DNA from: Methanocaldococcus jannaschii DSM 2661
GTDB lineage: Archaea; AGJL01; Methanococci; Methanococcales; Methanocaldococcaceae
DNA length: 24,662 nucleotides
Reading direction: 5' to 3'
Assembly (NCBI RefSeq): GCF_000091665.1
Contig: NC_000909.1
Span: forward strand, 706,049 to 730,710
Of the stretch, positions 9,127 through 15,713 are shown in pieces. Each line of letters opens with the position of its first letter. Position 1 is the stretch's first letter. The position numbers and the translations under genes were made by a program. The notes under the pieces were generated by a model. The model was not told the origin of the DNA, did no database searches, and saw nothing but the letters and a program-made list of their open reading frames with translations.

Positions 9127-9395
9127 TATTTCACCAATGCATTTTAATCGTGTTTAAATAATATTGATTATGTTATATTTCATTTTTTGATATAAAATTA
9201 TAAAATAGTTAAAAATAATTTACTTTTTTAAAGTTATAATTGTTTTATTATTAAAAATTCTAATAAGTTAAAAATTTTAACATATATAATTTACTATTTA
9301 ACTTTAAATCATAATATATATAGAGGTTTTGTATTATTACATTTGTGAAAAATGTGGAAAATAATAGGGGCACCATACAAAAAATTAAAGAATAG

Positions 9396-9430
9396 TTGGC
9401 GATGACGCTCCCTATATGGAGCTGAGCCAG
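9396..9430 (+). promoter_or_regulatory. Kink-turn (box C/D-like) hairpin in the leader of the 9462 gene. Alternatively a stand-alone small RNA
   Basis: C-stem TTGGC (9396-9400) pairs with GCCAG (9426-9430). Next comes a 3-nt bulge GAU (9401-9403). Tandem G04/A25 and A05/G24 pairs follow, then C06/U23. The second stem is GCTCC (9407-9411) with GGAGC (9418-9422), closed by hexaloop CTATAT. The strands read GCGAUGA (box C-like) and CUGA (box D). Confidence 0.5.
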
Positions 9431-9441
9431 TGCCTACACAA

Positions 9442-9457
9442 CCACCTTAAGAGGTGG
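9442..9457 (+). promoter_or_regulatory. Hairpin CCACCT-TAAG-AGGTGG that sequesters the Shine-Dalgarno sequence of the 9462 gene
   Basis: Perfect 6-bp stem. The 3' arm AGGTGG is the SD, and its last base is 4 nt from ATG 9462. Confidence 0.45.
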
Positions 9458-9461
9458 CAAT

Positions 9462-9731
9462 ATGAAATTTTTAGAGAAGGGAGTATATAAGATTTTTGGG
9501 GCAGTGATTTTAGTAAGTATGATAGGGGCTTTAGTGGCTGAGCCAATAGCTTTGGGAGATGCTGGATTGTATTATCAATACTATGTAGGAGATATTGATA
9601 CAGCTCAGCAGTGTTATCTTGTAGCTGCGGATTCAGCTATTACTGGAGCGGCTATTTCTGCTGCATTAGGTCCTGCAGGATTGGCTTCTGGAGTATTTAC
9701 TGTTGTGTTTAGTACTACGGTATTAGCTTAA
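9462..9731 (+). CDS. Small (89 aa) secreted or membrane-anchored Gly/Ala-rich hydrophobic protein
   Basis: Strong SD GAGGTGG. Sec-like N-terminus (MKFLEKGVYK, then IFGAVILVSMIGALVA, then EP). The C-terminal half is Gly/Ala/Ser-rich and hydrophobic (AITGAAISAALGPAGLASGVFTVVFSTTVLA). Followed by T-rich tracts (9737-9750). Confidence 0.55.
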   Translation: MKFLEKGVYKIFGAVILVSMIGALVAEPIALGDAGLYYQYYVGDIDTAQQCYLVAADSAITGAAISAALGPAGLASGVFTVVFSTTVLA

Positions 9732-9799
9732 AAATGTTTTTCTTTTTTAATTTTAATAATTTTTTGATATTTTTTAGGTGATATAATGGGTGATAATAC

Positions 9800-10288
9800 A
9801 TGAACTTTGAAAAGAAATTAAATGGTATATTGTCTTTCACTTATTTAGCGTTGGTCTTATGTTTGGTTATGCCTTTCATGCTTATACTTGTACTTGATAC
9901 TACATTTACATTTAATAAATTTAATTTGAATTTTGTATATCGCCAGATAGTAGAATTGATTGTTTTATCTATATTTGCTGGGTTTATTACATCATTTGCT
10001 CTTTATAATAAAATATGTAGGATATCTACTGAAGAATTAAAAAGAGATATATTAGAGAATAATGGATTAAAAACTATATTTAAAATTGCACAATACGAAG
10101 TGATGGTTTCGATATTCTATTCGTTATTATTACTGATTATATTATTAAATAAGCAATTATTATATTATGGTTTTACTGCTATATTTCAGATTTTCTTTAC
10201 ATTCTGTGCAATTTTTGTACCTTTATTTATCTTTGGTTCATTAGTATGTAGGACAATATTATTACATAAAATAAGAGGTACTACTTAG
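9800..10288 (+). CDS. Polytopic membrane protein, function unknown
   Basis: 162 aa with about 4 hydrophobic helices. GGTGAT SD at 9789-9794. Confidence 0.5.
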   Translation: MNFEKKLNGILSFTYLALVLCLVMPFMLILVLDTTFTFNKFNLNFVYRQIVELIVLSIFAGFITSFALYNKICRISTEELKRDILENNGLKTIFKIAQYEVMVSIFYSLLLLIILLNKQLLYYGFTAIFQIFFTFCAIFVPLFIFGSLVCRTILLHKIRGTT

Positions 10289-10348
10289 AACACTATACTA
10301 TACAATAATGATGATAAAATAAATAATAACTTTAACAATTGTGAAACC

Positions 10349-10885
10349 ATGAAAATACCAATAATCTTAACTCTAATGCTCTTCTCATTGGGTTTTATTT
10401 TTGGATTTATCTCAATAAACAACTTATCAAAAATTAACGATAAGGATTTATCCAACTATATACCCAATATACAGTTTAACTTTCCTTCAATATTAACAAA
10501 CAACTTAAAAGTTATCTTCCTAATGTTGGCTGGTTCTATAACTTTTGGATTATCTACTTTTATAAATCTAATATTCAACGGTTTTAATGTTGGTGTCTTA
10601 ATTGGTTCTATTTCCCTAACTAACGAACCGTTAAAATTAATAACCGCTTTAATTCTTCCACACGGAATATTCGAAATCTCAGCAATGTTAATATCAGCAG
10701 TAGCAGGTTTTAAAATTCCTTACAAAGTAACTCTCTACTTATTAGATAAAAAAGAAAAACCACTTACAGAAGAAGATATTAAGGACTTTTTAAAATTATC
10801 TCTAATTTCAATAATTCTAATCGTTATAGCCGCTTTTATTGAAGTTTATATCACTCCAAAGATAGCCACTTATCTACTAACGTAA
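10349..10885 (+). CDS. SpoIIM/DUF95-family membrane protein
   Basis: LPHGIFEISAMLISAVAGFKI matches the conserved PHGxxExxA motif of the stage II sporulation protein M-like (DUF95, COG1300) family. About 4-5 TM helices. Confidence 0.65.
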   Translation: MKIPIILTLMLFSLGFIFGFISINNLSKINDKDLSNYIPNIQFNFPSILTNNLKVIFLMLAGSITFGLSTFINLIFNGFNVGVLIGSISLTNEPLKLITALILPHGIFEISAMLISAVAGFKIPYKVTLYLLDKKEKPLTEEDIKDFLKLSLISIILIVIAAFIEVYITPKIATYLLT

Positions 10886-10942
10886 GATTTAAATAGTTGA
10901 AGTAACAAATACAATCATTGAAAAATCTAATAGGTGATACTA

Positions 10943-11359
10943 ATGAATTTAATAGAAGCTTTAACAAATCCAGACACTTTCTTCAAAAAACTCTCTCAAA
11001 AAGAAATCTCTCTAAAAGAACCATTTTTAATTGTTTTAATCTTTTCCATATTGATAGCAATTTCTGCCTACATATCAACTTCAATTATATACAAAATCTT
11101 TCCTCCACAGTATCAGCAAGTATTGGCATTTACCAAGATTATTGCGTTAATATCCACATTTATTGGTGGAATTGTTGCATGGTTAATTATAGCTGGATTT
11201 ATGCATCTCATTTCAATGATATTCAAAGGAGAAGGAAGCTTTAAGAAAACATTATCCTTTACTGGCTATGGATTCCTTCCAAATATAGTTGGAGCTTTAA
11301 TAACAATACCTATTGCCTATTATATGCGAGAAATCTCACAACAAGAAATGCGTTTATAA
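10943..11359 (+). CDS. Yip1-domain membrane protein, apparently frameshifted near its 3' end (C-terminal helix continues in another frame to 11424)
   Basis: The N-terminal LIEALTNPDTFFKKL followed by multiple TM helices is typical of Yip1/DUF1282 proteins. ATG 10943 is preceded by GGTGAT (10933-10938); the ORF track begins at GTG 10934. The frame starting at 11359 encodes TALIPTVIFGLYQLYSVLKLL* (to 11424), a plausible missing last helix. Confidence 0.55.
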   Translation: MNLIEALTNPDTFFKKLSQKEISLKEPFLIVLIFSILIAISAYISTSIIYKIFPPQYQQVLAFTKIIALISTFIGGIVAWLIIAGFMHLISMIFKGEGSFKKTLSFTGYGFLPNIVGALITIPIAYYMREISQQEMRL

Positions 11360-11438
11360 CTGCACTAATTCCAACAGTTATATTTGGTTTGTATCAACTA
11401 TACAGTGTATTAAAGTTACTATAAAATGAGGGAAAAAG

Positions 11439-12953
11439 ATGAAGAGATTAAAAAACTTATTTATCATCTTTATCTTCCTATTTCTTTTATCTCAGGTTTC
11501 TGCCTATATAACCTTCAAAAATATTGATTATAACGCTCAATACTTGGAGCCATCTAAAACCTATGATTTATATATAACAATAGAATCAGACAAAGAAATC
11601 AATAATACAGTTGTATATATAGAACCAACAAATCAAATATCCAAAGAAAACATAGAGATTATTAGAGGAAAGCAATGGATTGGACATCTTTTTCCTTATG
11701 AGTATGGTGTAGCTCACTTAATAATAAAAATAAATCCTAATGCACCAAATTATGATTATAAGATAACAGGTTATTGCAACTATACAAAAGGTAATCAGCA
11801 ATATTCTGAAAATAGAATTTTTACCCTTCCAGTGAGAGGAAAGGCAAACTTAGTTATAGAAACCACTAATAATATACTAAAAGTTGGTAATAATCAAATT
11901 CTCTTACTATTGACAAATAAAGGAACAGGAACTGCTGAAAATATAAAAATAGAATTTCAAAACTCGAATAATTTAATGGTTTTAGGAGATAATACTTTCA
12001 CAATATCTGCCTTGGGTTCAAAGACATCTACATACATTCCACTAACTATCTTTGCCAAAAAAGAAGGAGTTTATTCTATAAATTACAAAATATCTTACAA
12101 GAACCCTTATAATTTGTTGGAATTAACCCAAAAATCAGAGACAATAGAAGGGGACTCAAAAACAGAGACCTTAACGTATCAAAATAAAAACATAGTTGAA
12201 GAAACTGGAATTTTAACCTTCAATGTATTCCCAAATGAGTTAATTTCAATAAATATAAAAAACCCAACTATTACAGTTGGAAAGATAGAAAATCTAACAA
12301 TTTCAATAAAAAATAATTATAAAGATTCTTTATTTGTTGTTCAAATAAGTAAATACTTTATTGGAAATAACCAAAAATCTATATTCATCAAAAAAGGAGA
12401 GACAAAAAATCTAACTTTCCAAATAAAAGTAGATAAAGAGGGAGTTACTTCAATTCCTATAGTTATATATTTCGATAACAATCAGATTGAGAAAAATCTA
12501 ACAATAAATGTTGTAGGAAAGGCAGATTTGGTTTTAAGTGGGATTGATATAGAAAGTTCATTTAACGAAATAAAGATAACTGGAGATATTGACAACATTG
12601 GAACTGGAAAGGCAAAGAGCGTCTTAATCTCAATAGAAAAAACAAAAAACATCATTCCAAAAAAGCCGTATGAAAACTACTTCGTTGGAACATTAAATCC
12701 AGATGATTATGGTAGTTTTGAACTGCACTGCCAAATTAATGGAAATGTAAATGAAATTCCACTTAAAATAAGCTATAGAGATGAAGATAACAACCTAATA
12801 ACCATATATAAAACAGTAAAAATCAGTAAAGAAGTGGTTTCCTTAAAGACTAATAATAATGGAGGAATTAATTATTTAGTTGTTGGAATAGCTATATTGT
12901 TCTGTGTTGGAGTAGTTTATTTAATTTATAGGGGATTCGTAAAGAAAAAGTGA
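11439..12953 (+). CDS. Surface-anchored protein with repeated CARDB/S-layer-like beta-sandwich domains (COG1361-like)
   Basis: Signal peptide MKRLKNLFIIFIFLFLLSQVSA. Recurrent N-x-G-x-G-x-A motifs (LTNKGTGTAENIKIEF, DNIGTGKAKSVLISI). C-terminal TM helix LVVGIAILFCVGVVYLIY with a basic tail RGFVKKK. GAGGGA SD. Confidence 0.7.
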   Translation: MKRLKNLFIIFIFLFLLSQVSAYITFKNIDYNAQYLEPSKTYDLYITIESDKEINNTVVYIEPTNQISKENIEIIRGKQWIGHLFPYEYGVAHLIIKINPNAPNYDYKITGYCNYTKGNQQYSENRIFTLPVRGKANLVIETTNNILKVGNNQILLLLTNKGTGTAENIKIEFQNSNNLMVLGDNTFTISALGSKTSTYIPLTIFAKKEGVYSINYKISYKNPYNLLELTQKSETIEGDSKTETLTYQNKNIVEETGILTFNVFPNELISINIKNPTITVGKIENLTISIKNNYKDSLFVVQISKYFIGNNQKSIFIKKGETKNLTFQIKVDKEGVTSIPIVIYFDNNQIEKNLTINVVGKADLVLSGIDIESSFNEIKITGDIDNIGTGKAKSVLISIEKTKNIIPKKPYENYFVGTLNPDDYGSFELHCQINGNVNEIPLKISYRDEDNNLITIYKTVKISKEVVSLKTNNNGGINYLVVGIAILFCVGVVYLIYRGFVKKK

Positions 12954-12957
12954 TATT

Positions 12958-13470
12958 ATGAAAGGAATAAATCCATTTTATTTTTATATTGGAATGGCTT
13001 TAATACTCGCGTCAATCGTATCCATACTTTTAATTACTAAATCAATACTGCTATTTATACTGCTGGCTTTTGGAAGTTTAGTAGGAATTACTTTAATTTT
13101 AATCTATATCTCAAGAAAAATATTAAAGATAGATAAAGGACGGCTTAAAAAAGAAGTTAAGAGAATATTTGGAAATAGAGTTTATAAAATTTTAAGATTA
13201 ATGTTAGTTTTAGGATATGCTGGATTTATATACTTCTCTGGGACTTTTTATAACAGTGCAGTTTTATTTTTTATATTTATAGTGGCATTTACAATTTCTG
13301 AGTTTTATAAAACCTATAGGATAAGAATCTACGAAAAAGGGATATTGATTGAGGGTATTGCATTTTATAGCTGGGAAGAGATTGAAAAAACAACTAATAA
13401 GGACAAAAATCAAACAATATTAAAAATTAAAGGCATTCCTAAGAAAATAGTAATTAACGAAATAATTTAA
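12958..13470 (+). CDS. Membrane protein with a C-terminal PH-like domain, paralog 2 of 3
   Basis: Four hydrophobic helices. The C-terminus IYEKGILIEGIAFYSWEEIEKTTNKDKNQTILKIKG aligns with the C-termini of the ORFs at 3382 and 20935. Confidence 0.6.
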   Translation: MKGINPFYFYIGMALILASIVSILLITKSILLFILLAFGSLVGITLILIYISRKILKIDKGRLKKEVKRIFGNRVYKILRLMLVLGYAGFIYFSGTFYNSAVLFFIFIVAFTISEFYKTYRIRIYEKGILIEGIAFYSWEEIEKTTNKDKNQTILKIKGIPKKIVINEII

Positions 13471-13489
13471 AAATTCTTAGGGGGAATTT

Positions 13490-14197
13490 ATGATTAAACT
13501 CAAAAATGTAACAAAAACATACAAAATGGGAGAAGAAATTATTTATGCTCTAAAAAATGTAAATCTGAATATAAAAGAGGGAGAGTTTGTTTCGATTATG
13601 GGTCCTTCTGGCAGTGGAAAATCAACAATGTTAAATATTATTGGCTGTTTAGACAAACCAACAGAGGGAGAGGTTTATATTGATAATATAAAGACCAATG
13701 ACTTAGATGATGATGAATTAACAAAAATTAGAAGAGATAAAATTGGTTTTGTCTTTCAGCAATTCAACTTAATTCCTTTATTAACTGCCTTAGAAAATGT
13801 TGAACTTCCACTGATTTTTAAATATAGGGGAGCAATGAGCGGAGAAGAGAGGAGGAAGAGAGCTTTAGAATGCTTAAAGATGGCAGAGTTGGAGGAGAGA
13901 TTTGCCAATCACAAACCAAATCAGTTGAGTGGAGGGCAACAACAGAGAGTTGCTATAGCGAGGGCTTTGGCAAACAACCCACCAATTATATTGGCGGATG
14001 AGCCAACTGGAGCATTAGATAGCAAAACAGGAGAAAAGATAATGCAATTATTAAAAAAATTAAATGAAGAGGATGGAAAAACCGTTGTTGTTGTTACCCA
14101 TGATATAAATGTTGCGAGATTTGGAGAGAGAATAATTTATTTAAAAGATGGAGAGGTTGAGAGGGAAGAAAAATTGAGGGGATTTGATGATAGATAA
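13490..14197 (+). CDS. ABC transporter ATP-binding protein, LolD/MacB type (recognised as MJ0796)
   Basis: Walker A GPSGSGKST, Q-loop, signature LSGGQQQRVAIARAL, Walker B ILADEPTGALD and H-loop VTHD are all present. The full sequence is recalled as the crystallised MJ0796 ATPase. Confidence 0.95.
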   Translation: MIKLKNVTKTYKMGEEIIYALKNVNLNIKEGEFVSIMGPSGSGKSTMLNIIGCLDKPTEGEVYIDNIKTNDLDDDELTKIRRDKIGFVFQQFNLIPLLTALENVELPLIFKYRGAMSGEERRKRALECLKMAELEERFANHKPNQLSGGQQQRVAIARALANNPPIILADEPTGALDSKTGEKIMQLLKKLNEEDGKTVVVVTHDINVARFGERIIYLKDGEVEREEKLRGFDDR

Positions 14198-14597
14198 CAT
14201 CTCAAACTTCGATAAAGTTAGAGCAGTTGTAGTAGCGATATTGTTGTATATTTTTATAATTTTGGTTGTAGATGGAAGCATTTCTTCTTTAATTGGAAAA
14301 TATATAACTTATCCGAGTGATGAATATCATATTATAGAGTTTTATGATTTTATCCATATTATTGGTTTTCTCTTATCTTTATCAATTTCGACATATTTTT
14401 CGTCAAAAGATATTATTAAGGATTTTGCAAAATTTTTCACTATATTCTTTGGAATTACCTTTATTTTAGGAATCACGTTATTTTTGGGCTTAACATTTTT
14501 TGAAAATCACATCCCAAGCATGAGAGGTTATACGACATTAATGTTATTCTTCTTTCTTTTAAATCTTTTTAAGAAGTTGGATAAAATAACAAATTAA
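14187..14597 (+). CDS. Small 4-TM membrane protein wedged between the ABC ATPase and its permease
   Basis: ATG 14187 overlaps the 3' end of the ATPase gene by 11 nt, with a GAGGGG SD at 14176-14181. Hydrophobic throughout. I recognise no family. Confidence 0.5.
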   Translation: MIDNISNFDKVRAVVVAILLYIFIILVVDGSISSLIGKYITYPSDEYHIIEFYDFIHIIGFLLSLSISTYFSSKDIIKDFAKFFTIFFGITFILGITLFLGLTFFENHIPSMRGYTTLMLFFFLLNLFKKLDKITN

Positions 14598-14609
14598 ATA
14601 AGTGAGAGT

Positions 14610-15713
14610 ATGTATTTTGAATTAGCAAAGAGAAATTTAAAAAGAAATTTGTTAAGAAGTATTTTAGCTTTATTGGGGATTATAATAGGGGTTGCGGCAA
14701 TATCTTCTTTGGGAATATTAGGAGGAGGATTAAAACAAGGAATTATGGAAAATTTGGGGAGCATATCTAACTATATAATTGTTTTTCCAAATTATCAAAA
14801 TGGTTATACTTCTTTTGATAAAAGAGATATTGAAAAACTGAGAGTTTTAAATTGCAAAGTTATTCCAGTTTATGCTACTTCTGATTTTGTTTATATAAAA
14901 GGAAAGAATAGAAAAGCATACGCAAACATCTTCGGCATTGATAAAAATGACATAAAATACTTAAATTTGAAAGTGAAGGTTTCTGACACTTCTGTTGCTG
15001 TTGATACGTTCTTTTCTAATGTTAATGATGTTAATGTTGGAAATCAATTGGAGATTAAAAATATCTCATTGAGGATATGTGGGATTTATAACAGCACATT
15101 TTTATTCCCAGATAATTCTTTAATTTTAACGGCAAAAACATACAGAAGGTTTTATGGAGAAAATAATTACAATTATTCAAGAATAATCCTCTATGTTAAA
15201 AATATAAATGATATTGATAAAATAAAAAATGAAACAGATAAAATTTTAAACAGAAAAGAGAAAAAATGCATAATAATATCTTTAAACTCTATATTGGAGG
15301 CGATTAACGGAGTTATAACTAAGGTTTCTTACTTTTTAATGGGTATTGGAGCTATTTCATTGTTAGTTGCTGGTATTGGAATTGGAAATGTTATGTTGAT
15401 GAGTGTTGTTGAAAGAACAACGGAAATTGGAGTTATGAGAAGCATTGGAGCATCAAAAAAGGACATTATAATTTTATTCCTTTATGAAGCGTTGATATTG
15501 GGAGTTATTGGCTCTTTAATTGGGGCATTTTTGAGTTTATTCTTTGGGTATTTGATTGTTCATTATCTGTTAAAAACTTCACTGTCTTATTATGCAATCT
15601 TCTATATGATAATTGGCATAATATTTGGAATTTTAACATCTCTGATTTCAGCATTATATCCAGCATATAAAGCATCAAAATTAGACCCAATAAAGTCATT
15701 GAGAAATGAATAA
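14610..15713 (+). CDS. FtsX/MacB-type ABC transporter permease
   Basis: N-terminal TM helix, an extracytoplasmic domain of about 200 aa, then a C-terminal 3-TM FtsX domain with GIGNVMLMSVVERTTEIGVMRSIGASKKDI and the terminal YPAYKASKLDPIKSLR motif. Confidence 0.9.
   Translation: MYFELAKRNLKRNLLRSILALLGIIIGVAAISSLGILGGGLKQGIMENLGSISNYIIVFPNYQNGYTSFDKRDIEKLRVLNCKVIPVYATSDFVYIKGKNRKAYANIFGIDKNDIKYLNLKVKVSDTSVAVDTFFSNVNDVNVGNQLEIKNISLRICGIYNSTFLFPDNSLILTAKTYRRFYGENNYNYSRIILYVKNINDIDKIKNETDKILNRKEKKCIIISLNSILEAINGVITKVSYFLMGIGAISLLVAGIGIGNVMLMSVVERTTEIGVMRSIGASKKDIIILFLYEALILGVIGSLIGAFLSLFFGYLIVHYLLKTSLSYYAIFYMIIGIIFGILTSLISALYPAYKASKLDPIKSLRNE

Follow-up and report, generated by a model that had tools for sequence, protein, structure and literature searches.

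The window analysed here is a stretch of 24,662 nucleotides (nt) from Methanocaldococcus jannaschii DSM 2661 (NC_000909.1, positions 706,049 to 730,710 of the forward strand; all coordinates below without a locus label are those of the window). Here, we describe a leader in this window in which a kink-turn (k-turn) hairpin is followed by a second hairpin that buries the Shine-Dalgarno sequence (SD) of a gene for an 89-amino-acid (aa) product (coordinates in Table 1), with the argininosuccinate lyase gene (argH) lying divergently upstream. The k-turn hairpin belongs to a real family of cis-acting leader RNAs, of which no earlier description was found in Rfam or in the searchable literature, built around a known motif; natural control of mRNAs by L7Ae and k-turns is already known in archaea (Daume 2017, PMC5539422; Huang 2019, PMC6298567).

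Table 1. Coordinates of the leader and its gene in the window.
Feature	Position	Strand	Details
Predicted TATA box	9315..9322	+	TATATATA, then G; fits the M. jannaschii consensus TWTATATA
Predicted 5' part of leader	9346..9395	+	holds GAAAAATGTGGAAAAT (9347-9362) and A-rich AAAAAATTAAAGAATAG (9379-9395)
k-turn hairpin	9396..9430	+	sequence reading, minimum-free-energy fold and covariance model
k-turn canonical (C) stem	9396-9400 / 9426-9430	+	TTGGC / GCCAG, paired; U9396.G9430 is a wobble
k-turn bulge	9401-9403	+	GAU (GAT)
k-turn core	9404-9405 / 9424-9425	+	G9404.A9425 and A9405.G9424, tandem G.A/A.G
k-turn 3b.3n position	9406 / 9423	+	C9406.U9423, non-Watson-Crick
k-turn non-canonical (NC) stem	9407-9411 / 9418-9422	+	GCTCC / GGAGC, 5 bp
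k-turn hexaloop	9412-9417	+	CTATAT
Single-stranded linker	9431..9441	+	UGCCUACACAA, 11 nt, between the hairpins
SD-sequestering hairpin	9442..9457	+	CCACCU (9442-9447) / AGGUGG (9452-9457), loop UAAG
SD	9451-9456	+	GAGGUG, within the second hairpin
89-aa open reading frame (ORF)	9462..9731	+	probably MJ0792; starts at ATG 9462

Results

The first hairpin matches the standard description of a simple k-turn by sequence, with a C helix ending in a C:G pair (-1b:-1n is C9400:G9426), a 3-nt bulge, tandem G.A and A.G pairs, and an NC helix past the 3b.3n position. Its two strands read GCGAUGA, a box C with one deviation, and CUGA, a box D. Unconstrained minimum-free-energy (MFE) folding reproduces both hairpins (z = -2.3); the predicted stability of the k-turn hairpin at 85 C is marginal (-1.5 kcal/mol). 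The original prediction, made from the letters of the window alone, had placed a k-turn and an SD-sequestering hairpin (9442-9457) here and had called both GC-rich within an AT-rich spacer; the sequence reading bears out its k-turn coordinates base for base, the second hairpin holds as well, with SD pairing above the background of other genes (see below), and G+C content is 55-58% at the hairpins and 7.5-15% in the upstream spacer. In the MFE fold, GGGCAC (9368-9373) also pairs with GUGCCU (9430-9435), lengthening the C-helix of the k-turn across a 56-nt span; this long-range pairing was rejected as a feature of the element, being specific to the window and missing from every other locus.

A generic k-turn hairpin, defined by a 5-bp C-stem, any 3-nt bulge, the GA/GA core, a 5-bp NC stem and a loop of 3-9 nt, appears in 14% of dinucleotide shuffles, and the pattern on its own is therefore weak. 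The 229 chance hairpins obtained from 1500 shuffles of the window are AU-rich, each with at most 4 G:C pairs compared to 7 in the real hairpin, and no shuffle (0/1500) holds a k-turn hairpin with at least 7 G:C pairs. The decisive evidence for the k-turn is comparative, and lies in its conservation and covariation over 38 copies.

Related loci were collected by way of the protein sequence of the peptide family and not by the RNA motif, which leaves the sample unbiased as to the RNA. All copy counts cover the window and 19 loci fetched around this family; two homologues, one from Methanotorris igneus and one from M. infernus, were not placed on a contig and fall outside the set. A covariance model (R1) trained on a MAFFT alignment of 20 distinct units yielded 38 copies, 24 of them distinct. 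Exactly one of these is in the window, where it scores 49 bits (E = 2e-11); the other loci include M. vulcanius, M. infernus and M. lauensis, the strains FS406-22 and 28A, several metagenome-assembled genomes and vent metagenomes. Every copy (38/38) lies on the sense strand, 36 of the 38 end 31-43 nt upstream of the start codon of a paralogous small-peptide gene, and a k-turn hairpin stands upstream of every intact gene of the family in the fetched loci. Thirteen motif matches on viral contigs were rejected as chance, all being GC-rich unrelated sequence without the hairpin.

Across the 24 distinct copies the G.A/A.G core, the RAU bulge (GAU except for one copy with AAU) and the C:G pair at -1b:-1n are invariant, and the three C-stem pairs closest to the bulge are formed in at least 95%. 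Standard pairs fill 93% of pair cells, as against 20-50% when the partners are slid as a control. The search for compensatory changes that had been proposed with the original prediction was carried out on these related Methanocaldococcus loci, and shows double changes in the NC stem around the invariant core: two NC-stem pairs covary, U-A exchanging with C-G in 10 distinct sequences and C-G with U-A in 6. One M. infernus copy (L036:8374) keeps the core, GGC-GAU-GA...GA-GCC, on an unrelated NC stem of 6 bp (GAAUAG/CUAUUC). Three G.U wobbles found among the copies would be A.C on the opposite strand, which argues for an RNA made from the sense strand rather than a DNA palindrome. The 3b.3n position takes the forms C.U, U.G, U.U and G.U, with U.A in M. 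infernus, the hairpin loop is the least conserved part, and box D drifts from CUGA to CGGA or CAGA in many copies.

Two abutting hairpins form tandem k-turns in leaders of M. vulcanius (for example L028:9895-9964) and of three further loci (L003, L009 and L032), always with type A (C GCUCC...GGAGC U) ahead of type B (U GCCUC...GAGGC G). Degenerate k-turns go with disrupted genes: at the true orthologous locus (L001), where a 333-nt insertion splits the gene after codon 6, two G->A changes disrupt the NC stem, and another copy (L035:9872) combines a C-stem mismatch with a frameshifted ORF. In M. vulcanius, a k-turn of the same family (L028:14884-14915) lies directly 3' of the stop codon of a CARDB gene, some 40 nt ahead of an AUG that is led by an SD; this intercistronic copy has no equivalent in the window, since the corresponding genes there abut at 12953/12958.

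In the second hairpin of the window the SD ends 4 nt before the ATG, separated from it by the spacer CAAT, and lies 21-22 nt beyond the k-turn. In nearly all copies an anti-SD sequence, C(C)ACC, precedes the SD by 4-10 nt, with loops that vary in length and sequence, and some leaders have an alternative, longer register (TTGCCA-ACC/GG(G)TGGCAA) that buries the SD too. Covariation is not possible on the SD strand, because the SD has to match 16S rRNA. The linker between the hairpins varies among copies in both length (10-21 nt) and sequence. At 65 C the predicted probability that the SD is paired averages 0.66 for the family, whose members are not independent of one another, and 0.33 for 47 other SD-led genes of the same loci (Mann-Whitney p = 8e-4). 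For the window leader the prediction is 0.99 at 65 C, falling to 0.77-0.86 at 85 C, a temperature at which nearest-neighbour parameters are unreliable. A folding switch that couples the k-turn to exposure of the SD was rejected, as enforcing the k-turn in partition-function folding left SD pairing unchanged in 18 of 18 leaders.

Promoters of M. jannaschii follow the consensus TWTATATA with a spacing of 23 +/- 2 nt to the site where transcription starts (TSS) (PMC2699501). Applied to the predicted TATA box, which is followed by a conserved G(A/T)GGTTTTGTATTA, this rule predicts a TSS near 9346 (9345-9348), some 50 nt ahead of the k-turn; the stretch from the k-turn to the ATG holds no TATA-like sequence. 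The TATATATAG..GTTTTGTATTA block is kept upstream of paralogous leaders, and both GAAAAATGTGGAAAAT and the A-rich tract, which abuts the k-turn, recur in other loci. Short-type leaders have the same promoter block and are about 40 nt shorter, which puts their predicted 5' end at the A-rich tract, about 20 nt from the k-turn. They do not have GAAAAATGTGGAAAAT, which is kept at the predicted TSS of long-type leaders across species (also in L002, L005, L033 and L036) and could be a regulator site close to the initiator or a 5'-end element. MJ0791 to MJ0793 are not mentioned in the main text of Zhang 2009.

The N-terminal 33 aa of the 89-aa product (MKFLEKGVYKIFGAVILVSMIGALVAEPIALGD) are conserved and resemble a signal peptide; across the family (homologues P0001-P0035) this part is nearly invariant (MKFLEKGVYKIFGAVVLVSMIGALVAEPxAxGD, 33 residues), followed by a hypervariable, hydrophobic C-terminus rich in Gly and Ala. 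The original prediction, overstating the case, spoke of an envelope gene. A second subfamily (MNIFK) begins MNIFKSNILKGFAA. Homologues were found only in Methanocaldococcus and close relatives (Methanotorris), and Pfam and NCBIfam gave no family match. Oligo-T is an intrinsic termination signal in archaea. A T5 tract (9468-9472) lies 10 nt past the SD hairpin, where part of the transcripts might end as leader-only RNA; the tract is coding (codons K-F-L, AAATTTTTA) and missing from the MNIFK subfamily. For two metagenomic members (P0003, at L031:986-1366, and P0006), gene callers start the ORF at the AUG inside box C (GAUGA), so that the k-turn and the SD hairpin are translated into a spurious stretch at the N-terminus (MTLLYGAEPIKVAEPPYRGGN-MKFLEKG...); the leader is the cause of this annotation artefact.

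The gene lies in a hypervariable island (9462-15713 in the window; also L028, L033, L035 and L036) between argH and a conserved block that encodes SpoIIM-like, Yip1/YknW-like and CARDB proteins, the MJ0796 ABC ATPase and an FtsX/MacB permease. The ATPase (13490-14197) aligns with PDB 1F3O (MJ0796) from end to end, with an essentially complete score of 510 bits. The Yip1 protein scores 47 bits to the YknW family NF052650, under the cutoff. Modules of a small peptide, a 110-160-aa membrane protein and a SpoIIM-like protein are repeated in the island; in M. infernus a module of k-turn leader, small peptide, ~110-140-aa protein and SpoIIM-like protein is repeated about five times. RelB/ParE and HicAB toxin-antitoxin genes and Bax1-I genes are interspersed in some species.

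The insertion at the orthologous locus is a mobile-looking element of ~333 nt (L001:2308-2640) that splits the gene right after ATGAAATTTTTAGAGAAGGG. A copy with 81% identity lies at an unrelated place (L013, minus strand, ~1275-1571), again after GGAAGGG. The element has several GC-rich stems and a different k-turn hairpin of its own (AUGUC GAU GA G GAGGC ACU GCCUC C GA GACGA), and gave no match in Rfam, no plasmid match and no copy in the window. PLSDB plasmids, which are expected to include the extrachromosomal elements of M. jannaschii, gave no match to either the leader or this mobile-looking element.

Discussion

The analysis establishes the motif together with its conservation and covariation, the strand on which it lies and its fixed place ahead of the start codons of the family. 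We favour, at a probability of roughly 60%, the interpretation that the element is a conserved cis-acting 5'-leader RNA of a Methanocaldococcus-specific peptide family, made of two independent modules, in which an L7Ae-bound k-turn and the SD hairpin gate translation initiation. The first module is a consensus simple k-turn hairpin whose termini (GGCGAUGA...CUGAGCC) match those of archaeal box C/D small RNAs (sRNAs) exactly, with a 5-bp helix and loop in place of guides. Archaeal L7Ae, a protein of the ribosome and of other ribonucleoproteins (RNPs), has a very high affinity for k-turns; it is the most likely ligand, and at 85 C would fix the hairpin, in itself only marginally stable, in a kinked RNP. 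The second module, by pairing the SD with the upstream CCACC, would keep intrinsic initiation low. The rigid L7Ae/k-turn RNP would end at -32 from the AUG, where the 30S footprint has its 5' edge, beside the single-stranded linker, and we infer that the two would act jointly on initiation, probably by repression.

Several points weigh against this interpretation. The covariation comes from few independent events, namely two paralogous stem types and one outlier, and gene conversion or recombination among paralogues may homogenise the copies; the comparative evidence is good, though not overwhelming. The M. vulcanius intercistronic copy has no clear SD hairpin, which makes the k-turn the core that the element carries from place to place. 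There is no overlap between the k-turn and the SD, whose pairing stays unchanged when the k-turn is enforced, so that the occlusion mechanism of the l7ae-UTR switch (discussed below) does not apply. By its sequence (C:G at -1b:-1n and C at 3b), the window copy should fold without protein, and a strong, constitutively occupied site would fit a structural or stabilising role as well as it fits a sensor.

Such a role is the main rival. As an mRNA stabiliser or processing element, a constitutive L7Ae RNP would be a 5'-proximal roadblock to RNase J-type 5'->3' decay, the main route in methanococci, or would mark stable processed segments of a polycistronic island transcript, with the SD hairpin as a separate matter. 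We consider this possible but doubtful. The predicted strong self-folding favours constitutive occupancy over sensing, the k-turn is uncoupled from SD accessibility in the folding models, it lies close to the predicted 5' end in the short-type leaders, and k-turns with L7Ae protect the ends of archaeal C/D sRNAs; the intercistronic copy directly past the CARDB-gene stop fits equally well. In the window, however, the long A-rich 5' tail ahead of the k-turn would be left unprotected over about 50 nt, and neither the tight spacing of 31-43 nt to the AUG nor the constant SD-hairpin partner would be needed by a pure stabiliser.

A protein-independent architectural k-turn, in the style of the SAM-I and T-box riboswitches, would bend the leader and dock its loop elsewhere, making a sensor or thermometer for the SD hairpin. 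Metal ions alone are predicted to suffice for the folding of the window copy, and its predicted SD pairing, which falls from 99% at 65 C to ~77-86% at 85 C, is compatible with temperature-dependent opening. This explanation is nevertheless quite unlikely, because the loop that would dock is the least conserved part, the linker is constant in neither length nor sequence, and the 3b.3n position also takes forms (U.A in M. infernus, and U.U) for which self-folding is not predicted. A pseudoknot of the loop with its flanks was rejected, as loop complementarity to the leader segments matches that of shuffled loops (4.4 nt against 4.1 nt upstream, and 3.3 nt against 3.4 nt downstream).

The original prediction offered an independent sRNA as an alternative, and described the hairpin as box C/D-like with no guides. 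The description stands. The Rfam covariance scan that it proposed was run, and gave no family at the gathering score in the whole window and nothing relevant at E <= 10 in 9150-9800; the sole echo is the Pyrococcus C/D sRNA model sR49 (RF01303), which scores 15.9 bits on a tandem copy against a threshold of 50 bits and aligns the termini only, skipping its 39-nt guide region. In the manner of the box C/D k-turn of archaeal C/D sRNAs, of which sR49 is one example, the window copy has a box C-like GCGAUGA, with its one deviation, and a CUGA closed by a GGC/GCC terminal stem, and would by analogy share the k-turn geometry and L7Ae as the primary binder; unlike these sRNAs, the element lies within an mRNA leader, does not conserve CUGA, and has no C'/D' boxes or guides. 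A methylation-guide C/D sRNA was rejected, the 17 nt between the boxes being self-paired as a 5-bp stem and hexaloop. An independent or decayed guide-less C/D sRNA that merely lies upstream of the gene, bound by L7Ae and with a function in trans or none, would explain why the termini are identical to those of the Pyrococcus model (GGCGAUGA...CUGAGC); archaeal C/D sRNAs are frequently co-transcribed with adjoining genes, and the T5 tract could end some transcripts early. It is very unlikely all the same, given scores far under the Rfam thresholds, self-paired sequence where guides would be, the drift of box D and a T tract that is coding and not shared by the MNIFK subfamily, as well as the sense strand of all 38 copies and the fixed place of 36 of them before a family start codon.

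That nested inverted repeats in the DNA (TTGGC/GCCAA and GCTCC/GGAGC), downstream of a conserved promoter, form a transcription-factor operator and no RNA structure is highly improbable, since the invariant core is asymmetric (GAUGA vs GA) rather than palindromic, G.U wobbles are confined to the sense strand, the NC stem covaries and keeps no fixed recognition sequence, and all copies have one orientation relative to the gene.

For the favoured leader RNA with its two modules, the closest precedents come from Sulfolobus, where L7Ae binds k-turns in the 5' untranslated regions (UTRs) of l7ae and other mRNAs, including saci_1468 and saci_1520, and represses translation (PMC5539422; PMC6298567). 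A natural k-turn in an mRNA leader is thus less unusual than the original prediction had held. The l7ae UTR k-turn has a GAU bulge, overlaps the ribosome binding site (RBS) and is a poor folder, and once L7Ae is bound the RNA switches and the RBS is occluded; k-turns that fold without protein have C:G at -1b:-1n and either C at 3b or G at 3n (PMC6298567). The GAU bulge and the closeness to an SD-led start codon are common to both, and L7Ae as ligand and post-transcriptional control would be expected here by analogy. In contrast to the l7ae switch, the downstream gene is one of a multi-copy family that encodes small, putatively secreted peptides and is no l7ae or RNP gene, the SD lies outside the k-turn stem-loop in its own hairpin 22 nt downstream with uncoupled folding, the window copy obeys the protein-independent folding rules, tandem pairs occur, and there is no sequence homology. 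The element is not a member of the l7ae-type switch class, though it may work in a related way.

In anatomy the element is near-identical to synthetic L7Ae/Kt OFF switches (Saito et al., PMC3105309), which also place a minimal k-turn hairpin with a short C-stem, 3-nt bulge, G.A/A.G, short NC stem and small loop in a 5' UTR; it differs in being natural, conserved and in series with an SD hairpin, and would act, if at all, on SD-dependent archaeal initiation and not on cap-dependent scanning. With SD-hiding leader hairpins, RNA thermometers and the translationally inert toxin mRNAs of bacterial type I toxin-antitoxin systems, the element shares an anti-SD/SD hairpin directly before the start codon, an upstream single-stranded segment as a possible standby site and a small hydrophobic peptide as product. 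Here the host is an archaeal hyperthermophile in which melting is a prediction only, and neither an antisense RNA nor a processing site was identified.

The YknWXYZ system of B. subtilis confers protection from the peptide toxin SdpC. By its gene content the island resembles peptide-toxin export and immunity clusters of this kind; as a matter of speculation, the small peptides would be secreted toxins or signals, for which tight translational control would fit. A broader proposal, which we regard as unlikely, is that the k-turn leader marks a post-transcriptional regulon, with L7Ae or a guide-less L7Ae-Nop5-fibrillarin-like RNP on single or tandem k-turns gating a hypervariable island of secreted toxin-like peptides together with immunity and export genes (SpoIIM-like, YknW-like and the MJ0796/FtsX ABC transporter). 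If true, peptides of warfare or cannibalism between strains would be tied to the assembly state of ribosomes and RNPs, and archaea would have a natural multi-copy L7Ae/k-turn gene circuit.

To our knowledge, archaea have very few known families of conserved cis-regulatory RNAs. The k-turn leader, compact and natural, is a counterpart to the L7Ae/k-turn switches made by synthetic biologists, and comes in single and tandem versions, with 38 natural variants that sample the 3b.3n position governing k-turn folding. In addition, it draws attention to an island of hypervariable peptides, so far unstudied, beside the well-known ABC transporter MJ0796. The hypothesis is directly testable, since M. jannaschii L7Ae (MJ1203) is in standard use as a biochemical reagent and the organism lends itself to genetics; if true, L7Ae-mediated control of mRNAs would reach past the autoregulation of RNP genes.

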